From: Candidatus Omnitrophota bacterium
GTDB taxonomy: Bacteria > Omnitrophota > Gorgyraeia > Gygaellales > Profunditerraquicolaceae
Length of the DNA stretch: 64,000 bases
Direction: 5' to 3'
Assembly (NCBI GenBank): GCA_028716965.1
Contig: JAQUOV010000002.1
Location: 132,472 to 196,471, forward strand
Shown here: positions 3,332 to 26,769 of the stretch, piece after piece
Layout of the letters: every line of letters starts with the position of its first letter
How positions within the stretch are numbered: position 1 is the first letter of the stretch
Position numbers and translations under genes: made by a program
Notes under the pieces: generated by a model
Told to the model about the DNA's origin: nothing
The model's input: the letters and a program-made list of their open reading frames with translations, nothing else
The model's database searches: none

Positions 3332-3335
3332 AACA

Positions 3336-6061
<2,726 letters not shown>

Positions 6062-6063
6062 CT

Positions 6064-6900
6064 ATGGAAATAATTGCGCCGGATAAATCTAACGAAATTT
6101 TATATCCCGTTGCTGTCTTTAAGGAATCCTGGGGGCTCTGTATTAGGAGTTTAAAGAAATTAAGCCTGATTTACATAATTTTTAATCTGCCGATAATTGC
6201 TTTTTACTTTACTCCTGTGGCAGAAAAAATGCAGGCAGGGAAGCCAAGCCTTACAACCTTTCTTTTATTTTTCGTTCCGGCTTTGACCGCCAGCATTTGG
6301 TGTCACATTTCTCTGCTGCTGGCGGCAAAGAAAACGGTTGGTTTTGAGGATTATGAGATTGGGGAAAGCATAGCCCAGACAAAACCTTTATTTTTTAAAT
6401 ATCTCGGCACGGTTTTGCTCATCTCCCTTTTTATATTGGGCGTTGCTATGTTTAGCAGCTTGTCTGTCGCGCTGGCCTTGACGCTGTTGTTAAAGATAAA
6501 TAAGCTGTTGGCGACGCTGGTTTGCCTTGCTTTGGGAATAGCGATTATTGCATCAGCAGTTTATTTAATTATTCTCTGGTCTCTTGCTGCTACAGTTTGC
6601 GTTCTCGAGAACCTTCACCCTATAGCGGCCTTAAAGCGCAGCACCGCTTTAGTTGGAAACCGGGTGCTTCCGGTAGTATTTGTATATTCTTTGTTCGTGG
6701 CCGCATGTATTATATGTTTGATTCCATTTGTTATCGCTGGGGCAATCTTGGGCATAGGTGGCAATGCTGTTGAGGCAAATCAGGCAGGTTCAATATACAG
6801 CATGTTTATAAATATTGTCTTAATCCCGTTCTGGTCCGTACTTACAGTAATGTTGTATAAAAAATTACAAGGGGCATTAGAAACTAATGTATACGCGTAA
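6064..6900 (+). CDS. Hypothetical polytopic membrane protein
   Basis: 278 aa with several long hydrophobic segments. It is wedged between gyrB and gyrA and overlaps the gyrA start by 14 nt. Confidence 0.5.
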
Positions 6901-9463: not shown

Positions 9464-11299
9464 ATGTGTGGAATAGTCGGATATATAGGTGAAAGGCCGG
9501 CCCAGGGAATGCTCTTGACCGGCCTTAAGCGTTTAGAGTACCGCGGTTATGATTCCAGCGGCATAGCCGTAATTATTCCCGGGAAAAATACCCCGTCTGT
9601 CAGGAAGGCTTCCGGTAAAATTAGCGCTTTGGAAAAATTACTTAAAGCCAGAGGGCTTAAGGGCAGCGTAGGAATTGCGCATACCCGCTGGGCTACGCAC
9701 GGGGCGCCAACACGTGCCAATGCCCATCCGCATACCGACTGCGAAAACGAAATAGCGCTTGTGCATAATGGGATTATTGAAAACTATGAGGTTTTAAGGG
9801 CACAATTGCTAAAAGAGGGGCATTTGTTTCGCAGTCAGACCGATACCGAGGTGATCGTTCACCTTATTGAGAAGTTTTATAAGAATATCCCGTTAGAAGA
9901 TGCGGTACGCAAGGCCTTGAAATTAGTCACCGGGTCTTTTGCCATCGCGGTTATCGCTAAGCAAGAACCGGACAAGCTTGTCGGTGCCCGTTCGGGAAGC
10001 CCTTTGATTGTGGGGGTCGGCAAAGGCGAAAACTTCCTTGCCTCCGACGCTCCGGCAATTCTTGAACATACCAAGGAGATAATCTTCTTAGAGGAAAATG
10101 AGGTGGCGGTATTAAGCAAAGGCAGCTGCGCAATAATGGATCTTAACGGCAAGGCAGTAATTAGGGATGCGGTACGGCTTAACTGGGATATTGAACAGGC
10201 CCAGAAGCAGGGGTATAAACATTTTATGCTCAAAGAGATCAATGAGCAGCCCAGGATTATTGAGGCCCTGCTTGATTTGAGGATACAAAAAGACAGCAGG
10301 GTATTTTTTAAAGAACAGGGTATTGCTCTTGAGAAATTAAAAAACATAAAAAGTATTTTTATCGTTGCCTGCGGCACAGCTTATCACGCAGGCCTTGTGG
10401 GCAAATATGCCTTGGAGTCCCTTTGTAAAATACCCACATATATAGATGTGTCAAGCGAATTTCGTTACCGCGACCTGCTTATTGATGAAAATACCCTGGT
10501 CTTAGCGATTAGCCAATCCGGAGAGACAGCGGATACATTGGCGGGAATCCGGGAGGCTAAAAAACTTGGCGCCTCGGTAATCTCTATATGTAATGTCCTG
10601 GGGTCAACCTTGACCCGCGAATCAGACGGGGTAATCTATACTCACGCCGGACCCGAAATCGGAGTTGCCTCTACTAAGGCCTATACTGCTCAATTGACCG
10701 CGATTTATTTATTTGCTTTTTATCTGGCAGAGGTGCGCGATATAGTCCCGCAAAACAAGATAAATAAGTTAATTGAAGAGTTAAGAGATATACCTGCTAA
10801 GCAGGAGGAGATTCTGAAAAATCAGGATACGATTGCCCGCGTATCGCACCGGCATTCGCATTTTGGCTCTTTCTTGTATTTGGGCAGGAATGTAAATTAT
10901 CCTTCGGCTTTAGAGGGCGCGCTGAAATTAAAAGAAATTTCATATATTCCGGCAGAAGGTTATGCGGCAGGAGAGATGAAGCACGGCCCCATTGCTTTAA
11001 TAGATGAATACCGCGCCGTAGTCTGTATTGCCCCGGAGTCCAAGGTATATGAAAAGATGGTTTCTAATATCCAGGAGATCCGTTCGCGGTGCGGCAAAAT
11101 AATTGCTATCGCCACAGAAGGAGACGCCAATATCAAGGAGCTGACAGGGGAGGTAATTTATATTCCCAAATGCAATGAATTATTTTCTCCCCTTCTGGTA
11201 GTATTGCCGCTGCAGTTATTAGCGTACCATATCGCAGTAAAGCGCGGATGCGACGTGGACCAGCCGCGCAACCTAGCTAAATCGGTAACCGTGGAATAA
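9464..11299 (+). CDS. glmS: Glutamine--fructose-6-phosphate aminotransferase (isomerizing)
   Basis: 611 aa beginning MCGIVGYIG (the N-terminal nucleophile Cys), followed by SIS domains and ending ...VDQPRNLAKSVTVE. Confidence 0.95.
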   Translation: MCGIVGYIGERPAQGMLLTGLKRLEYRGYDSSGIAVIIPGKNTPSVRKASGKISALEKLLKARGLKGSVGIAHTRWATHGAPTRANAHPHTDCENEIALVHNGIIENYEVLRAQLLKEGHLFRSQTDTEVIVHLIEKFYKNIPLEDAVRKALKLVTGSFAIAVIAKQEPDKLVGARSGSPLIVGVGKGENFLASDAPAILEHTKEIIFLEENEVAVLSKGSCAIMDLNGKAVIRDAVRLNWDIEQAQKQGYKHFMLKEINEQPRIIEALLDLRIQKDSRVFFKEQGIALEKLKNIKSIFIVACGTAYHAGLVGKYALESLCKIPTYIDVSSEFRYRDLLIDENTLVLAISQSGETADTLAGIREAKKLGASVISICNVLGSTLTRESDGVIYTHAGPEIGVASTKAYTAQLTAIYLFAFYLAEVRDIVPQNKINKLIEELRDIPAKQEEILKNQDTIARVSHRHSHFGSFLYLGRNVNYPSALEGALKLKEISYIPAEGYAAGEMKHGPIALIDEYRAVVCIAPESKVYEKMVSNIQEIRSRCGKIIAIATEGDANIKELTGEVIYIPKCNELFSPLLVVLPLQLLAYHIAVKRGCDVDQPRNLAKSVTVE

Positions 11300-12147: not shown

Positions 12148-15100
12148 ATGGCATACAGGCTTAGAAAAATCTTATCTTTTTTCCTTTGCTTTTTACTTAT
12201 TTTCCAGCAATCAGGCTTTACCCAGATTGCCGGAGAGTTGGATATTTCAGGCCGCTTTCTTGCCCTGCGCAACAGTTTTATCCAGGATAGATTCCGCCCA
12301 ATACATTTAAGGTATCTTTCGTACGATCCAAGTATTAACAATTTTAGCCTGCTTTTAGACAAAGGGGATTTTCTGAAGGGACTGTCCCCGAAGGATAAGG
12401 CACCCAAACCTATCGGATGGTTTGGTGCCCCGCCTTCTGCGGGGGTTGTTCCTGAAGAGATCTTGCAACAAGAAACCAAGACCCTGCTAAATTATTTTTT
12501 TATCGGCATATCTTTGCCAAATGAGGCTTTTTGGGTAAACCTTCGGCCTGATTCGCCCAATAATATCATAGATCCGGAGGTTGCCGAAACAGACGTGGGG
12601 CGTATTTTGTTGGAAGCAGACCTGCAGCTTAAGAAAGATACAGCAAGTTTTACCTCTCCCCAAACTCCCGAAGGTAAAGATTATTGGGATAAGTTATATA
12701 AAAAAGCAGAAGAACTATACGGTTCCGAAAATATAACCATACCTACGTTAACCCGCCCCTGGATTGTTCCGGATGAGATCATTATCAGGGAAAGTTCCGA
12801 TAATGCTTATATTTACAAGGCTACTCTTAAAGTTATGCTTGAGCAGGATTATCTGAAGGATTCGTTAGTTTATAATTTTACGGATGGACGCTCCAAGGCC
12901 TTAAACGAGTATTCTTCAGAGCTTATCCGTAATACCATTATCCCCAGGCTAACCAGAGAGATTAACTCTAGTAAAAGGTACGCTCCCTTGAGGCAGGTTT
13001 ATTATTCTTTAATCCTTGCCCAATGGTTTAAACAGAAATTCTACGGCAAATCCGGGCTGTATAGTTATCTTATAGACAAACATAATCTTCAGGGTTTAGC
13101 TTCCAAGTCGCCCTGGTCTAAAACAGATTATTTCAATGCTTACAAAGTTTCTTTTGAACAGGGGGAATACAATATTAAAGAGCCACGTTACACTCCTTTT
13201 GGCCAGGTTATCAGAAGTTATATGAGCGGAGGGATCCAGTTAGGCGGTCCAGAAGCTATAAAGCAAATTATCCACGCCAAACCAGCAGGCAATAGCTCCC
13301 CGTTGTTTTTTAGGAATAATTATATTGTTCAAGGGTTAGCAAAAGTCAGCAGCGCAATAGACGCTCCATATCACATAGAAGCAATAGACATAAACAATAT
13401 TATTCAGGGAGCAACAAACTCAAAACAACAGCCATCTAGTTCGCCGCTGCAGAGCGATGCTCCCGCGGTCTCCCTGGTTGCGCAAAAAAAGCCAGCCGCC
13501 ACTAGTCCTGCGCAGCAGCCAGAAAAAATTAGCAATATATACGGTTTAATCTCGGCTTTCAAGAAAGCGTTGTTCCAAAGAAAAGAACGCGCGCGTTTTT
13601 ATGAAATAAGAAAGCAGTTAATAAAAATGGGCTTTAGCCCCGCTGTTTATGAACAGGCTCTTGAGTATGCATTAGGCCTAAAGGATGCAGAGATGGCCTT
13701 GCAAGCTATCTCTGGCTTGGAACAAAAGTTTAGTACTGGCGAAGGCAAGCAGTCTGCTGAAACCTTGAAAATAATTGTTGTGTTGGCGGAACCGCAAATC
13801 GCCCAATACGCCATTAACTCCTTAGCGGTAGCGTTAACTATTGAATCGACTGATCAGAGCGCTGTATTTGCGTTAAGAGAAATTGCTAAATGCCCATTCA
13901 TAGAACCGCAAATCGCCCAATACGCCATTAACTCCTTAGCGTCGGCATTAGTTACCACTACTGATTTCGGCTTCAGCGAAGGCATTGCTTATGAATTATT
14001 TCATTTAGCCCAAGGAGGAAGAAAAGCCGTTCGAGATAAAGCCCTTTCTTCGTTAGAGATGGCCTTAAGTACTCCAGGGTTAAATCCCAAGATTTATGAA
14101 CGAATAGCTAAATTATTTGAAAGTCTTATCAGATATGCAAAAAAAGATACTGCGCAGGAAGTTATATCTTTTTTGGAATCAATTAGGGATATAAAGGCAT
14201 CGGAGCTAGACCCCGTTGCATTTAAGGTCATGGGTTATGCCTTAGCTAATACAGGTTGGCAGAGACGGGGTCTTGTTCGCAGAACCTCTATTTTTCCATT
14301 GGAGAAAGATGGTCTGCTAAAAAAATTAGCAATAATTATTCATCCTGTAGAAGATAATAATGGTGCTTTCAAAGATATTGAGAATAAGGGCAAGCAGTTA
14401 GAGTCTCGAGGATACCGAGTTATAATCGCACGCGTTGATGGAATAGATGCGCTCTTGGCAGCATTAAAGGCTGCTACCGCACAGCAGAGAGCTTCAGTAA
14501 TAATGATAGGCGGGCATGGGAGTCGTACTAGTATACAACTTGGATTCGGGGAACCCAATTCAAAATTAACAATTAGGGATAAGCAATTAAAAGAAAAATT
14601 ATCAGCCGCGGTCGGCACATTAGAAGAGAACGGCATTATTATTCTAGATAGCTGTAGTACAGGAAAAGGCGGGAGGATATTTTCAAATATCGCCCAGCTA
14701 TTCGCGGATATCTTCCCGCAGGGTTTCGTCTTTGCTTCTCCTTATCCTGTAGTAGCAGAAAAGGGGATCAAGTTGGTTTTCAATAATAAAAACGAAGTAA
14801 CCGCAGTAGAATTTCTCCATGCATATTGGCCGCATGGCTACTATAATTCTGCAGCTAAGAGGGATCTTAATTCTCCCAAAAATTTAGCAATTGCAGAGAA
14901 AGTTCGGGATCCAGAGGATTCGCAAAATGGTTCCGCCAGCTCGCCGCAGGAGACAAAGATTGCGAATAATCAGACATCCTCTCCAATCAATAGTTCAGAG
15001 ACACTATTAGATCCAAAAGATGTATTGAGGCCAGATGGCTGGAGGAAGCTAAAATTAATGGTGTCGTTTGTGAGGGAATTAATTAATTCGGGGATAGAAT

Positions 15101-18100
15101 TTGATGATGGGTATTACCGTGGCCTGTTTGACAATGATATATTCTTAAATGAAGCGGAGAGGGTTTTTGGGGAAAGAAGGTTAATTCCGGCCAGAATAGA
15201 TACCTATATTTATAACCAGGCTACATCTGTTGAACAGGCTTTAATAGAATTGATTGCTAATGCTCAGGATGCCGTGGTAAATGAGAAAAAGATAGGCAGG
15301 TTCGGAGTAGGCGCTTATCAGATGTTCCGGGAACTAAAAAGCCCGGAAGACACAATTATAGTTACTACGTCCACAGATGGCAGGCTCGGCTGGAGAATAA
15401 CTTTTAAGCTTATTGAAGGAGATCTGTGTTGTAAGACAGAGCAGCTATCAGAAGGGATAGAAAAAGGTACCACGGTAGCCGTCAATACAAAGCTTTCATC
15501 CGAAGATGTGCAAGAACGTATCAACTATATAAAGAATAAGCTGCACACCAATGCCAGGAGCAAAATTACGGTTAATGGCATCTTGATCAATAATCCCGAA
15601 CAATACCATTACATTAACGGCGATAATCTTGTTATGCCTGACATAGAGCCGGTTCAGGTTGAGATTACAGGAAAGGGGTATGTAGTAATAGACAAGGGAA
15701 GCGGGATGAGTCCAAAGACCATTTGGGAGAAGTTTTTGGTTCCCAAGGGTACTACTAAGGCCATTGAAGGTAAGCCGGCAGAAAAAAGTTCAGAGATCAG
15801 GGAAGAGACGCATTTGTTCTATTCAAATATAATATCCGGTGAAGGGCAGGGAAGAGTAGCTGTTCAAATCAGCGGTGTAAAGAATATTGAAGTCCCGATT
15901 TTCGGGATGAATATCCCTGAAGAGTTGATCATTGAGCTTCCGCATGATGCATGGCTTCCGGAGTCAAGAGATAAAATCGCCATGGACAGCGTTACAAGGG
16001 AGGGGTTGCTTGAGGTAATGCGTAAGCTTACTTCTCCCCAAAGAAGCGATATAGCCAATAGGTACGCTTTAATTAACGGAGTAGCTTCATTATTAAGGCA
16101 TATTTTAAAGGACAGTGAAGATAAGTCATTATTGTATGAACTTAGAAGGATGTGCAGCGATTATATACAGGCTGAAGGATTTGGAAAGATATTCCTGCCG
16201 AACAGAAAAGAACTCGCTTTGTTACTTCTTTCTCCTGAGCAAGAAGTAATATTTTTGGATGAGCAGATGTTTTATTTTCGCCCTAGTAATATACCGAGCG
16301 TGGAGAAAGTAAGGGATTTTGTTTCTGCGGCATATGAATTATATATTGGAAACCTGGATGATCCGGAGGAAAGTAATATATATATTGAAGGCAGCTATCC
16401 GGATGGCAGAGGATGGATTATTTTGGATAGAAAGGTCTGGGAAAAGCATAAAGCTGATCCGGCCTGGCTTAATGGATTCTTGAATTTTAGTATTGGATAT
16501 GGAGATGAAGGGAAAAACTTTGGCACTATTATAAAATCTTCGGCGGGAAAGGTATCTTCCGGGGAAGCAGGTCTATCTACGGACCAATTATCTTCGGGGC
16601 CCAGCATCGGCAAAAAAGGGTTTAAAATCAGCCAGGAAGAAATAGATGCCCTGAGAAATGATTTGATTTCCAGCAAGATGATTAAAGAACAACTGGATGA
16701 TTTTGAAGAAAGGGACGTAAATTTTATTATAAAGATAGCTGAAGAGTCAATTGCCGCAGGGGAGATTAATAAGGGCAATATAGATGAAAAAAGAATTAAA
16801 TTACATAGTTGGCTTGCATTGCTCAAGGATTTAAAGAGGTCTTTGCCTGAGGGGATGTTTAGCGAGGCATGGCTGCAAAAGGAACTTTATCAGGTGAAAT
16901 TTAATATTTTTTCTTCCCAAGAGATTATTTCTAGCCCCGAAGTTGCTAACGGAAAGTTGTATTTCTATATTACGCGGTTTGGCGATGAAACTGTCCATTG
17001 GACTACATTTGAAATAAATAAGCAGGGAACGGTTATCTCTTTTGAAGGTGCGCGTCCGGTATTTACAAGCCAACATATATATCTTATAGAAAAAGATAGT
17101 AATCTGCATAAAATATCAATAAGGAATAGCGGTGAAAATAAGATTATTCTTGAGAAGGTAGTTGGAGAGTACTTGGAAGGATCAAAAAACGAGAATCTAC
17201 TAGCGCTTGTACAAGAAGGAGAAATCATTTCAATTAAGATCATTTCCGGAGAGAATGTTGCAGAATTCTGCCGTCTGCCCGCACAAGAGATGGCTGGTAT
17301 GTTGTCCGAAAAACCTTCTGCGGTAGTATGTAACAATAAGTATGTGGTATGGTTTAGCCATTTCGGTCCCCAAATGATATTTAAGGTAAATTCCTCCGGA
17401 GATATGCAACAGATTAAAATCAAAGGAGTGGACCGGATTAAGACCATAGCAATATTCCCAAACGGAAATATTGCTATTGCCGGGCATAAGAAAACGTCTT
17501 TCCAGGATGATTTCCTTAATAAATACAGCGCGTCAAGCTCGCTGAAAGCGGATTACTTCTCGGGCATAAACAGAAAGGCAGAAATTATTTTTGTCGATGA
17601 TCATGGGAAGACGGATGAGTATTATGTCCAGGATGAGGGTATTTGGCAGAAGGATGATGCGGTATATTTTCTTAAGGATAAAGGATTAGTACGCCTTAAC
17701 CAAAATGGGGAAAGTAAAATGTTTGCCTTGCCGAACATCGACCAAATACTTGGAAGTAAGAAAATAGATTCCTTGGTATTTTCCGGAAAATACATTTATT
17801 TAGTTATTGCTGGCAGGGATGTCCCTTTGCCCGGAACAAACCCGTTATACAGAATAGAAGTTGATAAGGAGGAAGCAAAGGAGATTACCGATGGTTCGTT
17901 GTCCCATACATTGATTACCGCAGGGGAACAGTCATATTGCATATCGCTAAAGAAGGGCGGGAGCAGGAAAATCCGGCGCATAGAAGAAAACGGGGAAATG
18001 GTAATTATTTATAATGAATGGGATGTAAAAGCCGCAATTCCGGACGGCAATTCGCTGTTTGTCGTTCGGGAAGAAAGCAGGCAAGGCATGTATAACAAAT

Positions 18101-21100
18101 TGTCATTATACGAAATAAGTCAGGATGGCAAGGCAAAGTTTACTTATTCCTTAGAGGGTGTTGATTTGGAGTTCTGGAAGATGGAAAATGGAGAATTTAT
18201 GTTTTTAGAAGATTATGATGAGTTGGCCAGCCAGGAAGATGAGGTAAGCCTTCACGCCAATCCTTCTGAACCGTTTAGAACATTAAGAAGGGTTAACATT
18301 TATAATCAGCGCACAGGAGAGGCTGTAAAAAGGAGCGCAATATTCTTCGAAGGTTCTTACAGAAATATGGTTTTCTTAGACGGGCATCCTTTTGCGGTAG
18401 AATCTTATCAAATAACTGCCTACCCGAATCTATCCTTGCTTATTGAACAGAGAGAATATTTGAGGAAGAATTTAACTGTTCTTCAAGAAAGATACCTGCC
18501 GCAATTGTTCGGCTTATTGTCTGTGTTGAGGCAGAATGAAAGGGAGCGACTTTTGCAGTCTTTGGTTACTCATAAACAGTGGATGCCGGCGTTGATTTTC
18601 TTGTCCCCCGAAACCATATTGAAAGCCGGAGAAGGTATTGAACAATTACGCCAAATTCTAGATGACGTGGTTTATAAGGCCAAGAATATAAAGCAGATCA
18701 GAGAAACGTTTAAATTTATCAACTTTATATTTAGCACCATTAAAGACGAAAAGATAGCTTTACGGATTACAGGAAGATGGTGCAAGGTTTTCTTAAAGAA
18801 CCCGGATTTAGCAGAAGTAATAGCCGATAAAATGCAGGAGAAATTTGATGTACCGCAAGATGGATTTATTGAAATGTTTGCACGTAGATTTGGCATGGGA
18901 ATGAATGCCGGGGGAGTAAGTACGGGGAAAAACCCGTTAGAATTTTATCAGGATTCAAAGGATCTGGCTTACCTGCCTAGCGAGGTCAGATTATATTTAG
19001 ATTTCTTAGTCAGTGAAGAATTAATGGTCCCTGTATTCTTATCTGAAGATAGGTTTTCCGGAAGAAAAACCAAAGCCGAGATAAAGGGGGTTGATTTATC
19101 AACCCTAATCCGCCTGCGTGAGTTATCGCCAGATACCATCCTGCAGCATCATGATGTGCAATGGGAAGATGTGGTATTGGGGGTCTTGGGCTTGAACGGC
19201 TCTGACATACAGGGGATCAGGAGGGATATTGCCGGGGCGGTAAATAGCCAAGATAAAACCCAGCAATACTGGATCAGGGAGTTGGCACAAAACGCAAGAG
19301 ATGCTATCCGTGCGATGTCGGGCATAGAAGTAAAAAGTGGATTCTTGGGACATGGGTTTTATACTGCATTTGCAGGGGGTTGCAATGAAGTGCGCATAAG
19401 AACCGGCAATGGCACATATGCCTATGAAATAGTCTTAAAGCCGAGTTATGACCCTAAAGGGGACATGGTTGACATTGCGGTTGTAAGAATGACCCGTTAT
19501 GAGAGCAATTTTAAAGGGACTCAAATACAGCGCGTGAATTATTATAATAGTACGGCAGATGAAGATGTGATTTTGGGTGTATTGTATACTACCCGCCAAG
19601 TAAAACGTTTTTTAGGAGCAATACCTTCAACGGGCGAAGATGGGGTTTCAGTAATTTACAATAATGAGTTAATTAATGAAGATGGGCACAGGAGTGAAAA
19701 TGCTGCAAGGGTTATAAAGATAGGAAATGGCGTTACACAAACGCCCAATAAAGATGGCTATTACGAATGGGTTGTTAGTATTACCGATCCGGCAGGAATG
19801 GATTTGCATACGATTTTAAACAAGCTTCTGCCTCCTGATGTATCGGGCAAGCCCGCGCAAGTGTCGCCAGCCAAGGGCGCCATAGGGGCAAACTTAGAAT
19901 CAAGTTTTAGTAAAGATAAAATATTGCGTGTTACGGTAGATAGGTTGTATGTGGATGATGTCGACTCAAAATATACCGAACTTGTCCCGCAGGATATCCG
20001 CCAGGTTTTATTAAAAAGAGGCTGGAATATCAATTTTCCCCAAGGCACGCCTGTTACTAGAACCAGGATAGGCGTAATGGATAGTCAATATTACAGGCCT
20101 TGGATTGCCGCCTTGGCTTTAAGAAGCGCCGTGGTTTTATATCTGAACGAAGGCATTCCTGAACTGGAAGGCTTAATTCCAAAGGACTATATATATTCTA
20201 ATTCCAATGCTATCCGAGTATCGCCAGATATCCTTGAAGACGCCGAAGCGATAAATAACGGTATGCCGGAAAAAGTTGACTTTTCAAAATACAATAATCC
20301 ACATTTGTTGGTGCAGTTGTTTACCGTGATTAAAGTAGCGTGGAAGGAAGAGCGTATCTCGCTTTGGGAAATTAAACAGAGAGTTCTTGAGGAGTATAAA
20401 AAGACTGCCGATAAAGTTAGCCTTGAAGGTATATTGCCCCCAGGCTTGCAAGGTTTACGCGATAGAGCAGAATCTTATATAACGCAAAGCATAAATAAGC
20501 GCAGGGTTGATATCAGTTTTTTGATGCAAGAGCCCATTATTATTGCCTTTCAAGAATTTGTTAACATATTGAATCGGTTGATAAAAGTAAACAATAAAAC
20601 TAATTTTGTCTGCGATATAGGCGCTCCTTACAGTGCTTACGCCAGTGCGTTTGTGCCGGCAGAAGGGGCTATTACATGGAATCTTGCTTATTATGAATCT
20701 ATCCTCCAAGAGCTTCTTAATTTTATATCCACTGGGGCCTTAGATGGAAACTTCTTGAAATTTATTGAGACTTATATCCATGAATCTAGCCATACGGTAG
20801 AGGGAAGTTACCAGGAAAAATATAAAAATGAGTGGACGCACCAGGCAGCCAGAAATGTCGGCGGGGCTTTCGGTTGGATTATGGATTTATTGTATGGAAG
20901 ATTGCTTTCTAACATGGGGACCCCTGAAGAGTTCCGGGAAATGTCGAAAAAAGAATTAGAAGAAATGGACTTTACCATTGAGGCATTAAGGGAATCATAT
21001 GAAAAAGTCAGTAACTACATAGACCAACAAACTCCCCCCATAGGTCTCTCGACATTAGAAAAAGTAGAATTTAAGCAGCCTGCCGCTTCGCCGATAATAT

Positions 21101-24100
21101 TAAAAGAGTCTTCAAACATCTCGAATCAGCCTATAGATACAGGTCGGCGCAGATTTATTCAATTACTCGGTTCATTCGGATTAGCGAGCCTCATCGTACC
21201 AGTTCAAACTCAAGCTCAAATGTTATTCCAGTGTATTATTCAGGTAGTAACTAATGTGTTAACCGATCGTGAAATTAAGCATATTAATGCGTGGGTTAAG
21301 GAATTAATAAGGCTGGCTGATCAAGGCAATGTTGCGGAATTTCAGCAACAATTTAATAGGATGTATGAGGGGAAACCAGTTAGGAAAGATGAGGAAAAGG
21401 ACCCGACCATAACAATGAACATATCGGCTCATAGCGTGGGTTTTAGTATGGAAGCGTATACGAGACCCAAAGTCATCATTCCAAATAAGCTCTTTTTATC
21501 TAAAAATTTTTATAATTGGAAAAGTGAAATCAAGCAAGAGATTGTAAAACAGATCTTGAAAAATGCTTATGGGCTCGGAGCCCCAGAGTCATTTGAGGTC
21601 CTTGAGATTCTTGATGCGATCAGCTCAAACGAAAGACTTTTTAATATGCTAGACATGGAAGAGCAAAAATTGCTTTATACATACATAGGAAAGGCTTCAG
21701 TCAGCCAGGCATTGCTTTCTACGGAGAAAGATGTGTACCCTGCTATTGGCAGATGGATAAATTCTATCCATGATTTATATGAACAGGATGGAAAGTGGTC
21801 GGAATATGTTAAAAAATATCTTGATTCGCGCTTTTGCTCTGATGAGCAGTTATATATTTTATTGAGCCGCGGAGGGTTTGAATTATACACAGGGACATTT
21901 AACCGCGTGTTTGATGAGTTGCTAAAGAGAATACAGGCCAGTGGAAATATTATAGCATGGTTAAGCAAAGTTGATTCTGCGGGAAACATGACAAGCGAAT
22001 TTTTGTTATCGTTATCCGGCAGAGGAAGGCTAATTAGGGTGATTGATGCTTCAGCCGTTAATTTGGCCCAAAAAGAGAAGATGCTAAAACAGATTTGTGA
22101 CATAATTCGTAATATTGCATCAGCTAATGCAAAAGAGTTAATGGAGGAAAAGACTAAAATGGCGTATATTTCTAATGCCGTAAAAGATATCTTTAATTAT
22201 GGCAATAGTAACGTCAATGACTATTTAAAAGAGATTATTCTGCAGATAAAAGATAATGGGGGTATATATGGAAAAGCGTTTTCGCTTATGATTATGGCTA
22301 AATTCCAAAATGTTTTTGGTTCGACCCCGGAAACCGAAGAAATAAGAGCGGTGCTTGATTATGCTGCCAGCCCTCCATACGAACAAATACTCAAGCCCGG
22401 GAAGCGCTTAGTAGTATTAGTCGACTTCGCAAATTCCGCAAAAGATTTCTTAGGTGAATTAGTAAAGCAGTTGAGCAGTAATTATGGAGGAAGATATAAA
22501 ATAAGAAGCCATAAGCCTGATGTGCAGCATGGGATTGTAACCGTCATTGGAGGTTCAATTAATGGGGTGGATATAGAATTCCATCTTGCCAGAGGCATAT
22601 CCGGAGATGAATTTAGGGAAACGATGGAATCAGGAAAGTATTCAATTATTTTCACACGGCATCATTCTTATGAAGGTGGGGATTTTCTTGGGGTAGGATC
22701 AAATACCGTAATTCCGCAGGTAATCGGGACAGTTGGGACAGGCAAGGGTATTGAAAATAACGCTTTTTCAATTGTGCTTAGCGAAGAAATCGCGAAGACA
22801 TTCTCTTCTAGAACAGGGTGGGATGAGGTTTGGCATAATATGCGCAAGCGGTTACCCAAAAGTATGGATAATTATTTACCGCCCAATCACATTTCATTTT
22901 TGATATCATACGTATTGAATGCTATAGATACGCGTTCAACAAAGATAGATCTCAACGGCGATATTCATAACAAGCAACTGATAAAGACAATAGTGGTAGA
23001 TGGTGGTTGCGGCGGGATTAATCGAATTCCATCATATTTAAATAAGTATGGTTATGCAATAGAGAAATTTAAGAATCACCCAGCGGGAAGTCCATTATCT
23101 ATTAGACAACAAGTGGTCCCTCTAGGCAGTGCAGTGGTTTCTGGTTCATCTTCACCTGCGGACAAGATAGAGAGAGGGGGGAAAGGCGTGGATTATAGGG
23201 CTCTTGCAATAAACAGGATCCGCGATGCCTTTCAGAAAGTGCTTAACCGTAATCCGGAAGATAGAGAGGTCATGGATGTGTTTGGGTTTATAGAATCCGA
23301 CCCAGACGGAACTTATTTGGAAGAAAGAACTTATTTCGCAGTGGCGGAGGCTTATGCTAACGAAATAAAAAGAGCGGGTGCCAGCTCGCCGATTGGCATT
23401 AGCAGAACCCAGGAAGAGTTGGCTTACTACCAGCAATTAAAGGAAAATGGACCGCTGGTATTTGACAAGGATAATGATAGATGGTTTTTGGATGAAGCAT
23501 GGTCAGGTTATGATTATCATAGTGTCCGCAGTTTATTAACACCAATAGATCTAAAGAATCCGGATACATTAGAAGAGGAATTGGGCAGGATAAATGCGAT
23601 TTTCACCAGATTTGATTTAAGTAAGGTAAATAGCTTTGGCGCACTTTATGCATATATAAGATGGAGATTGTCTCCTAATCGTTACGGCGCTAATTCAAGG
23701 GTTTCCGTGGAAACCCTTGTAAACATTATTGAACAGGCACGGGATGGCAAAGAAATCAATATTGCTTTTACGGATCCGTTACTAACCCAAATATTGGATA
23801 AGGCCAAAGATCTGGTTGAGACTGATAAATCCTCCAGCTCGCCGATTAAGTTGTCTTCTAGATTAGCTATGATAGAAACGCAGATATATAATCTTGAGCG
23901 GCTGCTTTTAGATGAGGAGAAGTTAAACAATGGAGAGTGGCTTGAGCTATATTTAGCTGCAGAAGGACAAATCGGGGATGAAGCACTTTATTATGGTAAT
24001 CTGAAAATTGTTCAGGATGCCAAGGGTAATGAATCCAAATTACACCAATTAAAAAGAGCCTTTGAGCCTTATGTAAAAGGGCTTTTAACCAAGGCCAAGG

Positions 24101-26769
24101 ATTTGAAGTCTGCAAGAAGCCCCTTAACCGAAGGCTTTGTGCTTAAAAATGAAAGCCGGGGTAGAATTCAAGGGTTAGCGGAGAAATGGAAGGCAGGCTT
24201 ATTAAGCGGTCTTGATTTATTGTCAAGACCGGAAATCCCCAAAGAAGAATTCAGGATTTTGGCCCGCTTTGTTAATAAATTGGTAGAAAGCGACATAAAT
24301 GCAATAAGCGTTCCATCTGATCCGGATACACAGGTAATTCTTGACACCTTTACTATAGGTTACCCCCGCGCAGAAATAGATTTTAAGAGTACGCTTGCAG
24401 TAAAGGTTTCAGAAACAGCCCCCGATAGCGGATCTAAGTCTATTGGCCTCTTAAAACTCAAGCTGGAAAAGCTTATTGAAATAATAGATGTTTTAGAGGG
24501 GGTTATAAATTCCGAGGGGGTTATTGATACAGAATTAATAACTGCTAGTCATTATAGAGAGCCAATGAAGGTTATAACACAGAAGTTTATTGATGGGGTA
24601 ATGGAAAAGATCCCGAAACCACCTGAATTATCCTCGGGTCAGATTAAACCTGCCAGCTCGCCAGCCGAGGCGAAGAGCCCTGTAGCTTCAGAGCTTGAAA
24701 TACGCCCGGAAGAAGCCGCCAGGTTATTGAGAGAGGCAGCTCAGGAGAACTATGAAAAATGGTGTCTTTTGGGCGAGCGATTAAAAGTAGCAAGGCGTAT
24801 TTTAGTCAAGGTTCCCGGACGCGATTCTCGCGGAGGACATGAATTTCCTTTGGGGGAGATAGCCGCTACCCTGCCGATATTGATCAAGGCGTTGGTTAAT
24901 TCCGGAAAAGATATTGAAGAGCTAATAGTGCAATGTGATTCTTACCCGGAATTGGTAGAAGCGATAGGAGAAGATAAGGTCAAATTAGCTGATCCTATAC
25001 AGACAACTGATGAATTAAGGTCTATCTATTCCCCGGATTTGGTTATTGATTTTGACACGGTAGCATTAGGCGAGGAGATTCCAGAAAGCACAGTAAAATT
25101 TCCAGTGGCAAGGCTATGGATGTCTTCAGATCGCCTCGGTGAAATGCGTGAAATTTTAAGATCAGCGCAATTAATCACTCCTGAATCAGGAGAGACAATT
25201 ATTAAGAGAGAAAAGAAAGAAGATGGACAGAAAACAATATTTGTAAATCCACATAGCGATAGCAATAAGAATGATAATGTAGATTCTTGGGTAGGCTTAA
25301 TACAGGAGCTTGTCTCAAAGGGCTATAAAGTTGTACTTAATTCAGGCAAAGAGGGGGGAATAGACCAGGCACATACAAAAAATATATTAGAAAAACTTAA
25401 AAAAGAAGTTGAATCTGGGGACGTGGAAGAGTTTAAAGGCAGTATCAGAGATCTTCTAGATACCTTTTTAAGTAAAATAGACGGTGTAATAACAATAGAT
25501 AGCGGTATATTCCACGTAGTACATAATTTATATTCCTTGCCCACAGTCGTTTTTATCACGTCAAATACGCTAGGATGGATTCCGCAGGAAAAAGAGGAGT
25601 TATTATTTAAGAGGATTCAATACTCAGATTTTAAAGATTATTCCACTATAGTAGCATTATTACGGAATTTACTAGAGAGAGAAAAAAAAGTAAACACAGG
25701 CTCTCCGGTGGTGGAGAATAATATAGAAAAGATAAAGAAATATACTTTAAAATCACTCAAGGATTTTGGCTATCCAGAAAATATCTTTGGTGGCATTACT
25801 AGACTAGAAAATGATAAGGCTCGCGCTCAGGTTATCAACGGCAAAGTATTCTTTAATGAGTTTTGGGTAGATAGATTGTTTGAGGATGAAATAGAACGCC
25901 TTTGCGCACACGAAGTTCAGCATCTATCGACAGAAGATCTTATAGGTAAAGGCATCAAATTAGGCGGCCTGCAAAAGGATAAAGGGTATATAGAGTTGAT
26001 GTTACGCATAGGCAGTCGATTTGACCGGATATTTGAAGAAAAAGGATCTGTGTTAACAAAACCTAAAGAATTCTATCAGGATCCATGGGAGGCATTGTCG
26101 CTTTTGCGGGGATACCAAATTTATTTGGACCAGGTAGCAAGAGGCATAAAAGTTTCTCCGCAAGCATATGAATTCATAGAGGCATTTGAAAATGATGATA
26201 CTATTTTCTTGAATCCTAATTATGTGCAACAGATTACGAAAAATTTTATACCAGAAGATTACGGGTATGAAAGGGTTACTTATGAACAGCTGGATGGAAA
26301 AGACGAGAATGGGGGAATGAGCAGTCCTTTGTTAAAACAAGGGCAAGTAAGCAAAGAGTCAGACGTTGGAGGCATTGACATGCGTTATCTGCCTAACAAT
26401 ATGGTTCTCCAGCCGATGGCGCCTAATAACTCCTTGAATCAGAGATTTATTCCTAGGGCCGCATCTTTAACTATTTCTGATAAGGAATGGCTTGAGATAG
26501 AAAAGATGGCAAATTCAGGCATAGCTCCTTCTTGTGAGCGATTAAGAGAGTATCTTTTATCTTTGCAGGACCCAAACAGCCAGATAGATAAAGTCCTTGC
26601 CTGTATTGCAGATATCCTGAGGCAGGAGGAAGAAAAAGCCTGCTGCACGGAATCTTCCTTAAAGGAAATACTGGTCCTGCTTGAATCAGGCAAGCCGGAT
26701 AAAGAATTAAGATTGGCATTAACAAAGATCCAGGTTTTAGCTAAAGAACCGCAGTTGATAGAGCAATAA
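12148..26769 (+). CDS. Giant secreted multidomain protein (4873 aa) with caspase-like, two GHKL ATPase-like and GT9-like modules
   Basis: One uninterrupted 14,622-nt ORF. The N-terminus has a signal-peptide-like stretch (MAYRLRKILSFFLCFLLIFQQSGFTQIAG). Internal motifs are a His...Cys dyad (IGGHGS...LDSCSTG), GHKL N-boxes ELIANAQDA and ELAQNARDA each with a G1-like box, a GT9 motif ITIDSGIFHVVHNLYSLPTVVF, and two HEXXH motifs. Confidence 0.85.
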   Translation: MAYRLRKILSFFLCFLLIFQQSGFTQIAGELDISGRFLALRNSFIQDRFRPIHLRYLSYDPSINNFSLLLDKGDFLKGLSPKDKAPKPIGWFGAPPSAGVVPEEILQQETKTLLNYFFIGISLPNEAFWVNLRPDSPNNIIDPEVAETDVGRILLEADLQLKKDTASFTSPQTPEGKDYWDKLYKKAEELYGSENITIPTLTRPWIVPDEIIIRESSDNAYIYKATLKVMLEQDYLKDSLVYNFTDGRSKALNEYSSELIRNTIIPRLTREINSSKRYAPLRQVYYSLILAQWFKQKFYGKSGLYSYLIDKHNLQGLASKSPWSKTDYFNAYKVSFEQGEYNIKEPRYTPFGQVIRSYMSGGIQLGGPEAIKQIIHAKPAGNSSPLFFRNNYIVQGLAKVSSAIDAPYHIEAIDINNIIQGATNSKQQPSSSPLQSDAPAVSLVAQKKPAATSPAQQPEKISNIYGLISAFKKALFQRKERARFYEIRKQLIKMGFSPAVYEQALEYALGLKDAEMALQAISGLEQKFSTGEGKQSAETLKIIVVLAEPQIAQYAINSLAVALTIESTDQSAVFALREIAKCPFIEPQIAQYAINSLASALVTTTDFGFSEGIAYELFHLAQGGRKAVRDKALSSLEMALSTPGLNPKIYERIAKLFESLIRYAKKDTAQEVISFLESIRDIKASELDPVAFKVMGYALANTGWQRRGLVRRTSIFPLEKDGLLKKLAIIIHPVEDNNGAFKDIENKGKQLESRGYRVIIARVDGIDALLAALKAATAQQRASVIMIGGHGSRTSIQLGFGEPNSKLTIRDKQLKEKLSAAVGTLEENGIIILDSCSTGKGGRIFSNIAQLFADIFPQGFVFASPYPVVAEKGIKLVFNNKNEVTAVEFLHAYWPHGYYNSAAKRDLNSPKNLAIAEKVRDPEDSQNGSASSPQETKIANNQTSSPINSSETLLDPKDVLRPDGWRKLKLMVSFVRELINSGIEFDDGYYRGLFDNDIFLNEAERVFGERRLIPARIDTYIYNQATSVEQALIELIANAQDAVVNEKKIGRFGVGAYQMFRELKSPEDTIIVTTSTDGRLGWRITFKLIEGDLCCKTEQLSEGIEKGTTVAVNTKLSSEDVQERINYIKNKLHTNARSKITVNGILINNPEQYHYINGDNLVMPDIEPVQVEITGKGYVVIDKGSGMSPKTIWEKFLVPKGTTKAIEGKPAEKSSEIREETHLFYSNIISGEGQGRVAVQISGVKNIEVPIFGMNIPEELIIELPHDAWLPESRDKIAMDSVTREGLLEVMRKLTSPQRSDIANRYALINGVASLLRHILKDSEDKSLLYELRRMCSDYIQAEGFGKIFLPNRKELALLLLSPEQEVIFLDEQMFYFRPSNIPSVEKVRDFVSAAYELYIGNLDDPEESNIYIEGSYPDGRGWIILDRKVWEKHKADPAWLNGFLNFSIGYGDEGKNFGTIIKSSAGKVSSGEAGLSTDQLSSGPSIGKKGFKISQEEIDALRNDLISSKMIKEQLDDFEERDVNFIIKIAEESIAAGEINKGNIDEKRIKLHSWLALLKDLKRSLPEGMFSEAWLQKELYQVKFNIFSSQEIISSPEVANGKLYFYITRFGDETVHWTTFEINKQGTVISFEGARPVFTSQHIYLIEKDSNLHKISIRNSGENKIILEKVVGEYLEGSKNENLLALVQEGEIISIKIISGENVAEFCRLPAQEMAGMLSEKPSAVVCNNKYVVWFSHFGPQMIFKVNSSGDMQQIKIKGVDRIKTIAIFPNGNIAIAGHKKTSFQDDFLNKYSASSSLKADYFSGINRKAEIIFVDDHGKTDEYYVQDEGIWQKDDAVYFLKDKGLVRLNQNGESKMFALPNIDQILGSKKIDSLVFSGKYIYLVIAGRDVPLPGTNPLYRIEVDKEEAKEITDGSLSHTLITAGEQSYCISLKKGGSRKIRRIEENGEMVIIYNEWDVKAAIPDGNSLFVVREESRQGMYNKLSLYEISQDGKAKFTYSLEGVDLEFWKMENGEFMFLEDYDELASQEDEVSLHANPSEPFRTLRRVNIYNQRTGEAVKRSAIFFEGSYRNMVFLDGHPFAVESYQITAYPNLSLLIEQREYLRKNLTVLQERYLPQLFGLLSVLRQNERERLLQSLVTHKQWMPALIFLSPETILKAGEGIEQLRQILDDVVYKAKNIKQIRETFKFINFIFSTIKDEKIALRITGRWCKVFLKNPDLAEVIADKMQEKFDVPQDGFIEMFARRFGMGMNAGGVSTGKNPLEFYQDSKDLAYLPSEVRLYLDFLVSEELMVPVFLSEDRFSGRKTKAEIKGVDLSTLIRLRELSPDTILQHHDVQWEDVVLGVLGLNGSDIQGIRRDIAGAVNSQDKTQQYWIRELAQNARDAIRAMSGIEVKSGFLGHGFYTAFAGGCNEVRIRTGNGTYAYEIVLKPSYDPKGDMVDIAVVRMTRYESNFKGTQIQRVNYYNSTADEDVILGVLYTTRQVKRFLGAIPSTGEDGVSVIYNNELINEDGHRSENAARVIKIGNGVTQTPNKDGYYEWVVSITDPAGMDLHTILNKLLPPDVSGKPAQVSPAKGAIGANLESSFSKDKILRVTVDRLYVDDVDSKYTELVPQDIRQVLLKRGWNINFPQGTPVTRTRIGVMDSQYYRPWIAALALRSAVVLYLNEGIPELEGLIPKDYIYSNSNAIRVSPDILEDAEAINNGMPEKVDFSKYNNPHLLVQLFTVIKVAWKEERISLWEIKQRVLEEYKKTADKVSLEGILPPGLQGLRDRAESYITQSINKRRVDISFLMQEPIIIAFQEFVNILNRLIKVNNKTNFVCDIGAPYSAYASAFVPAEGAITWNLAYYESILQELLNFISTGALDGNFLKFIETYIHESSHTVEGSYQEKYKNEWTHQAARNVGGAFGWIMDLLYGRLLSNMGTPEEFREMSKKELEEMDFTIEALRESYEKVSNYIDQQTPPIGLSTLEKVEFKQPAASPIILKESSNISNQPIDTGRRRFIQLLGSFGLASLIVPVQTQAQMLFQCIIQVVTNVLTDREIKHINAWVKELIRLADQGNVAEFQQQFNRMYEGKPVRKDEEKDPTITMNISAHSVGFSMEAYTRPKVIIPNKLFLSKNFYNWKSEIKQEIVKQILKNAYGLGAPESFEVLEILDAISSNERLFNMLDMEEQKLLYTYIGKASVSQALLSTEKDVYPAIGRWINSIHDLYEQDGKWSEYVKKYLDSRFCSDEQLYILLSRGGFELYTGTFNRVFDELLKRIQASGNIIAWLSKVDSAGNMTSEFLLSLSGRGRLIRVIDASAVNLAQKEKMLKQICDIIRNIASANAKELMEEKTKMAYISNAVKDIFNYGNSNVNDYLKEIILQIKDNGGIYGKAFSLMIMAKFQNVFGSTPETEEIRAVLDYAASPPYEQILKPGKRLVVLVDFANSAKDFLGELVKQLSSNYGGRYKIRSHKPDVQHGIVTVIGGSINGVDIEFHLARGISGDEFRETMESGKYSIIFTRHHSYEGGDFLGVGSNTVIPQVIGTVGTGKGIENNAFSIVLSEEIAKTFSSRTGWDEVWHNMRKRLPKSMDNYLPPNHISFLISYVLNAIDTRSTKIDLNGDIHNKQLIKTIVVDGGCGGINRIPSYLNKYGYAIEKFKNHPAGSPLSIRQQVVPLGSAVVSGSSSPADKIERGGKGVDYRALAINRIRDAFQKVLNRNPEDREVMDVFGFIESDPDGTYLEERTYFAVAEAYANEIKRAGASSPIGISRTQEELAYYQQLKENGPLVFDKDNDRWFLDEAWSGYDYHSVRSLLTPIDLKNPDTLEEELGRINAIFTRFDLSKVNSFGALYAYIRWRLSPNRYGANSRVSVETLVNIIEQARDGKEINIAFTDPLLTQILDKAKDLVETDKSSSSPIKLSSRLAMIETQIYNLERLLLDEEKLNNGEWLELYLAAEGQIGDEALYYGNLKIVQDAKGNESKLHQLKRAFEPYVKGLLTKAKDLKSARSPLTEGFVLKNESRGRIQGLAEKWKAGLLSGLDLLSRPEIPKEEFRILARFVNKLVESDINAISVPSDPDTQVILDTFTIGYPRAEIDFKSTLAVKVSETAPDSGSKSIGLLKLKLEKLIEIIDVLEGVINSEGVIDTELITASHYREPMKVITQKFIDGVMEKIPKPPELSSGQIKPASSPAEAKSPVASELEIRPEEAARLLREAAQENYEKWCLLGERLKVARRILVKVPGRDSRGGHEFPLGEIAATLPILIKALVNSGKDIEELIVQCDSYPELVEAIGEDKVKLADPIQTTDELRSIYSPDLVIDFDTVALGEEIPESTVKFPVARLWMSSDRLGEMREILRSAQLITPESGETIIKREKKEDGQKTIFVNPHSDSNKNDNVDSWVGLIQELVSKGYKVVLNSGKEGGIDQAHTKNILEKLKKEVESGDVEEFKGSIRDLLDTFLSKIDGVITIDSGIFHVVHNLYSLPTVVFITSNTLGWIPQEKEELLFKRIQYSDFKDYSTIVALLRNLLEREKKVNTGSPVVENNIEKIKKYTLKSLKDFGYPENIFGGITRLENDKARAQVINGKVFFNEFWVDRLFEDEIERLCAHEVQHLSTEDLIGKGIKLGGLQKDKGYIELMLRIGSRFDRIFEEKGSVLTKPKEFYQDPWEALSLLRGYQIYLDQVARGIKVSPQAYEFIEAFENDDTIFLNPNYVQQITKNFIPEDYGYERVTYEQLDGKDENGGMSSPLLKQGQVSKESDVGGIDMRYLPNNMVLQPMAPNNSLNQRFIPRAASLTISDKEWLEIEKMANSGIAPSCERLREYLLSLQDPNSQIDKVLACIADILRQEEEKACCTESSLKEILVLLESGKPDKELRLALTKIQVLAKEPQLIEQ
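13789..13941 (+). repeat. 39-bp perfect direct repeat (two copies, 13789..13827 and 13903..13941) inside the giant gene
   Basis: gaaccgcaaatcgcccaatacgccattaactccttagcg occurs twice 114 bp apart, encoding EPQIAQYAINSLA in two consecutive helical repeat units. Confidence 0.9.

Follow-up and report, generated by a model that had tools for sequence, protein, structure and literature searches.

The window analysed here, a 64,000-nt stretch of contig JAQUOV010000002.1 from a Candidatus Omnitrophota bacterium, opens at a bacterial replication origin with dnaA, dnaN, gyrB, gyrA, glmS and a gene for an rsmI-like methylase, after which it holds an open reading frame (ORF) for a giant protein of 4873 residues. 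The product is a 100% match to an NCBI entry from a metagenome-assembled genome (MAG), 'MAG: hypothetical protein PHT50_01915 [Candidatus Omnitrophica bacterium]'. Directly upstream are glmS and the rsmI-like gene, and downstream are pyrR, pyrB and pyrC, the immediately adjacent gene being that of a phosphoribosyltransferase. Nearly all long ORFs of the window are on the plus strand and the cumulative GC skew climbs throughout. The subject of this analysis is a Ser-Pro hexapeptide that recurs along the giant protein, and which is a real, family-wide punctuation mark between shuffled, largely whole-gene modules. The features of the ORF are collected in Table 1.

Table 1. Features of the giant ORF (coordinates are window positions; P numbers are relatives of the window protein).
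Feature	Position	Strand	Residues	Remarks
Long ORF	12148..26769	+	4873 in total	
N-terminal basic and hydrophobic segment MAYRLRKILSFFLCFLLIFQQSGFTQ	12148..12225	+	1-26	Family consensus ...FEQSGFAQ
Conserved N-terminal domain, family-defining	12148..13242	+	1 to ~365	
Motif 1, N-S-S-P-L	13291..13305	+	382-386	End of N-terminal domain
Motif 2, S-S-S-P-L	13435..13449	+	430-434	
Module	13441..14982	+	432-945	HEAT-like internal repeat, weak DUF4347; 77% identity to P0004 1306-1819
Motif 3, A-S-S-P-Q	14935..14949	+	930-934	Holds CCAGCTCGCC copy 1 (14936-14945)
Motif 4, T-S-S-P-I	14974..14988	+	943-947	Tandem with motif 3
Variant motif A-A-S-P-I	21082..21096	+	2979-2983	
Tat-like segment TGRRRFIQLLGSFGLASLIVPVQTQAQ	21139..21225	+	2998-3024 plus 2 residues	15 residues past end of AASPI; weak
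Variant motif A-G-S-P-L	23083..23097	+	3646-3650	
Motif S-S-S-P-A	23146..23160	+	3667-3671	
Motif A-S-S-P-I	23380..23394	+	3745-3749	10-mer copy 2 (23381-23390, extended ...GATT)
Motif S-S-S-P-I	23833..23847	+	3896-3900	10-mer copy 3 (23834-23843, extended ...GATT)
Motif A-S-S-P-A	24652..24666	+	4169-4173	10-mer copy 4 (24653-24662); left edge of GT9-like module
GT9-like module	24658..25704	+	4171-4519	Weak glycosyltransferase family 9 (GT9) match
Variant motif T-G-S-P-V	25696..25710	+	4517-4521	Right edge of GT9-like module
Last motif, M-S-S-P-L	26317..26331	+	4724-4728	Unstructured lead-in to C-terminal domain
GGIDMRYLP box	26368..26394	+	4741-4749	Near-invariant start of family C-terminal region
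C-terminal five-helix bundle	26473..26727	+	4776-4860	Predicted local distance difference test (pLDDT) above 90

The tripeptide SSP occurs ten times in the protein (at residues 383, 431, 931, 944, 1595, 3668, 3746, 3897, 4170 and 4725) against 1.15 expected from composition, none of 5000 residue shuffles reaches ten, and it is the most over-represented tripeptide of the protein (Poisson P 4e-7). This bears out a sequence-only reading made beforehand, which had reported at least eight copies where about one was expected. One of the ten, IISSPEV at residue 1595, falls off the flanking pattern described below, and composition alone would yield about one such SSP. Three more sites have a relaxed form of the motif (AASPI at 2981, AGSPL at 3648 and TGSPV at 4519), so that the motif sites of the window protein total 12.

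At the nucleotide level the 10-mer CCAGCTCGCC is present four times in the window (14936, 23381, 23834 and 24653), always within the giant ORF and in the single frame xCC-AGC-TCG-CCx, where dinucleotide shuffles of the window predict 0.05 copies. The same reading had given this count and three of the positions correctly, its 23391 being a slip for 23381, and it was right that two of the four copies extend further, to CCAGCTCGCCGATT (14 nt common to both). A longer duplication is ruled out as their source, because the flanks of the copies are unrelated. From the codon usage of the gene, AGC-TCG is expected at 2.35% of Ser-Ser pairs; it is found at 4 of 10. Synonymous shuffles that kept the protein and the codon pool of the gene fixed yielded some 10-mer at least four times in 7% of cases, so the window alone offers weak, suggestive evidence for constraint on the nucleotides beyond that on the peptide; the codon analysis across the family, given below, is strong evidence for it.

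A protein search returned 119 relatives, which with the window protein make up the set of 120 family proteins used below. The relatives align at the ends only, about 118 of the 119 to query residues 1 to about 380 and about 108 to residues 4725-4873, and almost nothing else is common to them. In a profile search with the N-terminal domain, 7738 representatives of 50%-identity clusters were matched (6405 with E <= 1e-30), and each of the 150 hits listed has the domain beginning at or close to residue 1; judged by this profile, the family has at least 7,700 sequence clusters with an N-terminal domain of about 360 residues. Members have a signal-like N-terminus, this domain and a variable string of modules, and most close relatives also have a C-terminal domain of about 150 residues. 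The window protein scores 628.7 bits against the profile of the N-terminal domain and is 53-84% identical to its relatives over residues 1 to about 365. It also has the family tail, a GGID(F/L/M)RxLP box and, after it, a helical domain of about 95 residues (seen in the alignment, and as a five-helix bundle in the AlphaFold2 model), and a variable cargo punctuated at its 12 sites by [S/A]-A-[S/G/A]-S-P-[V/I/L/A]. Neither framing domain has a significant match in Pfam or NCBIfam or a convincing fold match; the N-terminal domain has no convincing counterpart in the PDB, and the C-terminal bundle finds generic helical matches only. Full-text literature searches for the motif, and for Omnitrophota proteins that are giant, fused or multidomain, returned no description of the family or the motif.

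The middle regions of the relatives match Pfam families of glycolytic enzymes (phosphoglycerate kinase and triosephosphate isomerase among them), methyltransferases, GNAT, metallophosphoesterase, HEAT repeats, HATPase, UbiB, M48, radical SAM and others. The Pfam and NCBIfam searches found almost nothing in the window protein itself: there are weak matches to DUF5050 (residues 1775-1924), glycosyltransferase family 9 (4363-4457), DUF4347 (758-841) and a sacsin-like ATP-binding motif. A scan of species-representative genomes found 447 family copies, several per genome, of which 80 loci were kept; nearly all of these are labelled as Omnitrophota or 'uncultured Planctomycetales' MAGs, and they include one tandem pair.

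Across the variable regions of the 120 proteins, ASSPV is the top-enriched pentapeptide (57 observed against 0.3 expected, 168-fold); ASSP and SSPV are each enriched 27-fold, and AGSP and AASP about 9-fold. The pattern is position-specific, [S/A]-[A/S/V]-[S/A/G]-S-P-[V/L/I/A], with no preference outside it. The strict motif has a density of 0.59 per 1000 residues in family genes and 0.025 in flanking ORFs (about 24-fold less), the ORFs sampled being mostly those of cytoplasmic genes, and it is not enriched in the other genes of the 64-kb window. Family proteins carry a median of 2 motifs and a maximum of 24. A plain helix N-cap box (S-P-x-x) was rejected as the meaning of the pattern, there being no acidic preference after Pro-Val.

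The suggestion of the sequence-only reading, that the motifs lie between apparent domains and may mark module boundaries, is supported by Pfam domain order, homology blocks, shared modules, structure models and dips in identity. In P0034 the order is motif 407, GNAT 466-538, motif 579, methyltransferase 663-767, motifs 810, 817 and 990, and metallophosphoesterase 1039-1123; in P0077 a motif at 552 precedes a transaldolase (571-947), and later an enolase (2520-2976) stands between motifs at 2499 and 2985. The Pfam domains of both proteins are thus bracketed by motifs about 5-60 residues from the matched stretches. The Enolase_N match of P0077 begins at profile position 14, 21 residues past the motif, and the Enolase_C match runs to position 278 of 296, ending 9 residues ahead of the next motif. 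The modules that can be checked against Pfam in these two proteins (enolase, transaldolase, methyltransferase, GNAT) are near-complete ordinary enzymes, whereas the window protein's own modules have weak Pfam matches only.

Among 1083 homology blocks of the variable regions, 315 end within 25 residues of a motif (106 +/- 15 under random placement), and a motif lies inside only 80 (259 +/- 17 under random placement), an approximately three-fold depletion. The modules which the window protein shares with relatives end at motif sites, namely residues 444-961 (with P0004), 4175-4522 (with P0005, P0006 and P0003) and 3745-3987 (with P0003), the last having A-S-S-P-I as its left edge. The first of these regions occupies a different place in P0004. 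The GT9-like module is 76-78% identical to P0005 6293-6643, P0006 5714-6068 and P0003 3888-4275, and the shared block stops within 4 residues of both flanking motifs. Three of the four copies of CCAGCTCGCC are at the edges of modules that recur at different positions of other members at 53-78% identity, or in the linker beside them.

Mapping of disorder, which had been proposed as a check, agrees with this placement. In the predicted structures the first and last motifs fall in unstructured parts of low confidence beside the conserved terminal domains, the first directly following a model stretch with pLDDT below 50 (residues 360-381), and the 20-residue flanks of motifs are richer in disorder-promoting residues than these proteins are on average. 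In alignments that span a motif, identity is about 0.2 at adjacent positions, 0.40 at the Ser and 0.49 at the Pro. The end of the N-terminal domain carries a motif in 76 of 100 motif-rich proteins, and a motif precedes the GGID box in 63 of 79, at a median distance of 10 residues. Motifs are spaced by a median of 250 residues, and 11% of the spacings are those of tandem pairs no more than 15 residues apart. Residues 1596-2980 of the window protein (window positions 16933-21087, 1385 residues) are without a motif yet hold at least a beta-propeller-like DUF5050 region and a HATPase-like region, so the motif delimits captured units and not every structural domain.

Short, poorly conserved linkers separate the modules, which have been acquired, deleted and relocated between paralogs and genomes. 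Comparison of family genes at the nucleotide level places several breaks of similarity in, or a few codons from, the motif codons. Two loci from different MAGs, L017 and L018, have one common module of 1011 nt at 94% identity, and their similarity runs from TCT-TCT-TCC-CCT-GTT (S-S-S-P-V) to inside GCC-GCC-GGC-TC|G-CCG (A-A-G-S|P). Another pair, L004 and L005, aligns collinearly at 82-85% identity, interrupted by two module indels (3.3 kb and 1.65 kb) that each lie between motif copies, and one left indel edge is exactly at GCC-AG(T/C)-TCG-CCG-GTT. The order gyrA-glmS-rsmI-family gene is found in at least 20 loci from other Omnitrophota genomes (with gyrB also in 14) and the cargo differs among them, showing fast turnover of modules at a fixed chromosomal position. 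In the window the giant gene is about 12 kb from dnaA, and matching synteny is seen for example in L024, L033, L042 and L050. The species-representative loci that were fetched contained no orthologous DNA for the internal motif sites of the window protein.

Codon usage was analysed in 82 family genes, all of them taken from the loci that were fetched. The motif codons lean to GCC-AGC-TCG-CCG family-wide, which accounts for the identical 10-mer occurring four times in the window. The Ser before Pro is encoded by TCG in 44% of motifs, compared with 11% in the background and 13% in Ser-Pro outside motifs; CCG encodes the Pro in 52% (30% in the background) and GCC the preceding Ala in 50-64% (24% in the background). 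Relative to each gene's own usage, TCG is observed 100 times where 23.3 are expected (P 3e-39) and CCG 116 times where 67 are expected (P 1e-11). The TCG and CCG bias holds across GC contents of 37-50%, the third-position bias spans only about 12 nt, and the bias rises with the match of the peptide to A-S-S-P-V. Both codons are found in the same instance 71 times (58.5 +/- 3.2 under within-gene permutation). The first Ser is encoded by AGY (51%) as well as TCN codons (TCT at 32%), and as these are not synonymously interconvertible it is selected as an amino acid.

Several sources of this codon signature were considered and rejected. An artefact of GC content or lineage is countered by the per-gene backgrounds and the within-gene permutation, and a general Ser-Pro or Pro-Val codon-pair effect by the finding that Ser-Pro, and Pro before Val, Ile, Leu or Ala, have background usage outside the motif. 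A genome-wide DNA element (an uptake, Chi-like or methylation site) does not fit the confinement of CCAGCTCGCC to this ORF within the 64 kb. Furthermore, family genes totalling 466 kb contain 24 copies of the 9-mer AGCTCGCCG (22 in the S-S-P frame) and 568 kb of flanks contain 4; nearly confined to one frame of family genes, the 9-mer is not a general DNA element. Read as its reverse complement, a Chi-like site would sit on the lagging-strand side, and there is no enrichment outside the family.

A pattern search of 249 family proteins found 24 internal signals resembling those of twin-arginine translocation (Tat), and 9 of the 24 are within 25 residues downstream of a motif (chance 0.03 per site, P 2e-8). 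Five begin 4-8 residues past a motif, as in ...PASSPVSV-SRRDFLKTAAVAAVVVPLVTPSIVNA|A. With the Pfam TAT_signal profile (PF10518), 7 of 10 segments were matched, 5 above the gathering score; nine of the ten came from relatives and all seven matches were among these. An apolar run follows 22 of 560 motifs, compared with 7.3 +/- 2.4 at random positions. Because a Tat signal ordinarily acts from a free N-terminus, functional signals here would require a cut in the chain at the motif or close to it. Some internal Tat-like signals are preceded by Met, namely those at residue 3784 of P0005 (MDRRTFL), 3228 of P0006 (MNRRTFL) and 2491 of P0026 (MTRRAFL), and these Met residues look like old start codons, left over from the in-frame fusion of genes that were once separate. 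Initiation of translation at internal sites past the motif was rejected, as there is neither Met enrichment nor a preference for GTG at the Val codon.

The best reading of these results, though not a proven one, is that the motif is a junction site between captured whole genes and a likely place of cleavage, and that modules are shuffled by crossover in its coding sequence. The common coding core of 10-16 nt would provide in-frame microhomology for recombination of module cassettes, and recombination at this shared core would in turn keep the motif codons alike. That the peptide is a processing site of a long precursor is put at a little under an even chance; a putative protease would cut the precursor at the motif and release the modules as whole enzymes, and in some relatives the cut would expose a Tat export signal starting 4-8 residues on. 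Several complete proteins in one ORF (the enolase and transaldolase of P0077) together with a conserved short junction peptide, as are seen in polyproteins, are consistent with such processing. Family loci contain no conserved protease neighbour, their synteny being of housekeeping genes only, and the protease candidates in the window protein itself are HExxH strings and the weak DUF4347 match. The motif is the best available candidate for both the cut point and the module-swap point. The full combination, in which complete ordinary enzymes are made as polyproteins, framed by the dedicated N- and C-terminal domains and cut by a protease at A-S-S-P-V, some of them exported by Tat, with the 12-nt core as the cassette junction for whole-gene exchange, is a tentative proposal and, taken whole, a rather doubtful one.

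A number of observations weigh against this reading. No motif is present in 37 of the 120 family proteins, and single sites are lost between orthologs at 81% identity (ASSPQ to AGSPA, SSSPL to SSSSL), so that any processing must be redundant or lineage-specific. The sequence-only reading had looked to retention at equivalent sites in orthologs, and there the individual sites do turn over; the motif is a lineage-dependent, redundant punctuation mark and not a fixed position. Homology blocks are likely to end in linkers whether or not a motif is present, and one L018 crossover left a damaged motif, AAGS|ALS. An identity of 10-16 nt is short for RecA-type recombination. With regard to export, the RRRFIQ segment of the window protein (residues 2983-3039) has no PF10518 match, and the Tat signals inside relatives could have persisted as relics from genes that were captured; MDRRTFL in P0005 and MTRRAFL in P0026 have a relic Met and no motif nearby. 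A signal-like N-terminus would probably route the chain out of the cytoplasm, which is ill-fitting with cleavage in the cytoplasm followed by Tat export.

Motif-poor members tend to carry (K/R/Q/L)DGG, the two densities being anticorrelated (rho -0.33), and in other lineages it may take the place of the Ser-Pro motif at junctions or cleavage points, perhaps as a site of double-glycine type. The motif-poor set shows a 119-fold enrichment of QKDGG, and xDGG overall is observed 127 times against 38 expected; carriers are the relatives P0016-P0075 and others, for example P0071 ('...NQKDGGVPGQPESKGGIDFR'). Motif use looks like a genome-level trait, since all three paralogs of one genome (L065, L071 and L074) have no ASSPV-type motif in about 8,700 residues, but L019 is a counter-case with one seven-motif gene and one motif-free gene. 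L071 (match 3251-4291) and L074 (match 10001-11017), on contig JBAZLM010000004.1, are the tandem family genes and are about 11.6 kb apart.

Much of the evidence can also be read without cleavage. If the motif were never cut and were kept mainly at the DNA level as an in-frame crossover, with the peptide a tolerated by-product in a flexible linker, this would account for a codon bias of about 12 nt that neither GC nor per-gene codon usage explains, for the linkage of TCG and CCG within instances, and for the scaling of the bias with consensus match, as for copies decaying from a master sequence. Breakpoints in or beside the motif codons, the turnover of single sites in close orthologs, and the tandem pairs (about 11%) such as ASSPAKDASSPV, which are expected when two flank-bearing cassettes join, are accommodated as well. 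We nevertheless consider it unlikely, as the use of both AGY and TCN codons for the first Ser indicates selection on the amino acid, position -1 accepts exactly S, A and G and position +1 after the Pro accepts V, L, I and A, and the Ser and Pro form a peak of conservation inside drifting linkers. The microhomology is moreover very short, AGCTCGCCG is nearly limited to one frame of one family, and the Tat signals 4-8 residues past the motif are left unexplained. Three observations, the codon signature, the breakpoints at or near the motif and the downstream Tat signals, are not explained if the motif is instead a modification site in exposed linkers (PglL-type O-glycosylation or Ser-Pro phosphorylation) that protects or regulates them. 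PglL-type oligosaccharyltransferases target Ser in flexible segments rich in Ala, Ser and Pro, and the motif lies in such segments; the signal-like N-terminus suggests an extracytoplasmic location, many redundant and individually dispensable sites would fit, and there are kinase-like and glycosyltransferase-like modules among the cargo. General O-glycosylation systems, however, mark many exported proteins, and the motif is about 24-fold rarer in neighbouring genes (a weak test, these being mostly cytoplasmic); much of the cargo is also of cytoplasmic type, ATP-dependent or radical-SAM enzymes. Modification is accordingly regarded as improbable.

A role in translation, in which the motif at module ends would either programme a pause or, depending on its codons, separate the chain at Ser-Pro and so help each module to fold on its own, is less probable still. 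It draws on TCG being the rarest Ser codon in family genes (11% background, 44% in the motif), on the linked preferences for Ser and Pro codons, on Pro being a slow peptide-bond acceptor and on a partial, graded effect such as would be expected of a kinetic trait. CCG, GCC and AGC are common here, however, so there is no rare-codon cluster; viral 2A-type peptides conserve far more than the 5-6 residues seen here; the positions after the motif are not enriched in Met or GTG in a way that would point to re-initiation; and a folding pause is expected 30-40 codons past a domain and not at its edge. That the repeats are chance, or the composition of low-complexity Ser/Pro-rich linkers, can be set aside almost entirely. 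IISSPEV, one of the ten SSP, is chance-like and 7% of synonymous shuffles do repeat some 10-mer at least four times, but the family-wide statistics refute this explanation, with 10 SSP against 1.15 expected, ASSPV 168-fold enriched, position-specific flanks, an association with boundaries of about 10-14 standard deviations and a TCG bias at P 3e-39.

Further features of the window protein concern its N-terminus and modules. The segment MAYRLRKILSFFLCFLLIFQQSGFTQ at residues 1-26 is probably a signal peptide or signal anchor, and the AlphaFold2 model of the N-terminal domain has a helix at residues 3-22. The stretch encoded at window positions 12190-12225, after the hydrophobic segment, is near-invariant in the family (consensus FEQSGFAQ; Q21, G23 and Q26), which is unusual for an ordinary signal-peptide c-region, and the invariance of these three residues suggests a dedicated sorting or cleavage step that would leave an N-terminal Gln. 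In the second module a direct repeat of 48 nt at 92% identity (window positions 13789-13836 and 13903-13950) encodes EPQIAQYAINSLA twice, 38 residues apart, and is a recent internal duplication of a helical repeat. Two sacsin/HATPase-like ATP-binding motifs are in different modules, ELIANAQDA (about 15160-15200) and IRELAQNARDA (about 19270-19300), and only one of them gets an NCBIfam match, a weak one. The two HExxH strings, HESSH (about 20770-20790, residue ~2876) and HEVQH (about 25900-25920, residue ~4587), are possible zinc-protease sites without Pfam support; some relatives have M48 peptidase modules. Elsewhere in the window, an ORF of 278 residues (6064-6900) between gyrB and gyrA overlaps the start of gyrA by 14 nt and has no Pfam match at E <= 1e-5.

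The family resembles known systems in part. MARTX toxins of Vibrio and relatives are likewise encoded by one very long ORF with conserved ends, variable enzyme modules and unstructured linkers that carry processing sites, and their module sets vary between strains via recombination; the Omnitrophota family shares the long ORF, the conserved termini framing a variable string of enzymes and the linker sites. MARTX linkers are cut after Leu and are not known to carry a conserved hexapeptide, and in contrast to these toxins the Omnitrophota cargo is largely of housekeeping-type enzymes. In the Pfam and NCBIfam searches the window protein showed neither an RTX-type glycine-rich repeat nor a C80 cysteine protease domain, and the neighbouring genes that were examined include none for type I secretion. 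In polymorphic toxins the motifs VENN (CdiA) and PxxxxDPxGL (Rhs) mark the border between constant and swappable parts, their coding sequence gives homology for recombination, and the junction is thought to be the point of module release too. A short conserved peptide at the border of swappable parts is common to both, but each CdiA or Rhs protein has a single junction and a toxin tip, with an immunity gene adjacent to its own, whereas there are up to 24 junctions here, the C-terminus of the window protein is the conserved family tail and not a variable tip, and the modules are near-complete metabolic or regulatory enzymes. With pyrR, pyrB and pyrC downstream, there is no immunity gene. Viral polyproteins, which hold complete proteins in one ORF with short junction peptides in exposed linkers (for example the 3C-type Q|G), are similar in having complete proteins in series and a junction peptide in linkers. 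The Omnitrophota family differs in being cellular, chromosomal, multi-copy and placed by the replication origin, and in having 37 of 120 members motif-free. The gene is not a member of any of these three systems, as their defining domains or neighbours were sought and not found.

Giant proteins of Omnitrophota have been described before, as the Archaeovorin and Dockerin types, in a paper that discusses proteins of over 30,000 residues, the longest of about 85,000, and for which cleavage into several products was suspected and the cleavage points were stated as not known (bioRxiv 10.1101/2023.11.21.568195). A catalogue of long proteins from the phylum details those of at least 80,000 residues (bioRxiv 10.64898/2026.06.07.730766), and the methyltransferase, HATPase and GNAT of the present cargo match its 'module 1'. 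The much longer proteins on which both papers chiefly concentrate have many transmembrane helices and dockerin/TSP3, C39 or SecA domains (bioRxiv 10.1101/2023.11.21.568195; 10.64898/2026.06.07.730766). The present family is alike in phylum, in its long ORFs and in its few annotated domains, but the window protein, at 4873 residues, is without the domains of the Archaeovorin and Dockerin types, and text searches of both papers found neither the frame of N- and C-terminal domains nor an SSP-type motif.

The junction peptide bears on whether the very long proteins of Omnitrophota act as single chains or as cut pieces, and makes the question of processing testable, as it offers a defined target for metaproteome searches and for mutation in reporter constructs. 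It is also a rule by which long proteins can be cut into units for structure prediction. In-frame shuffling of whole genes at a 12-nt core bears on how multi-enzyme proteins evolve in reduced, host-dependent bacteria and, if the full polyprotein proposal is true, the family would represent a cellular, polyprotein-based alternative to operons with a built-in mechanism for shuffling.

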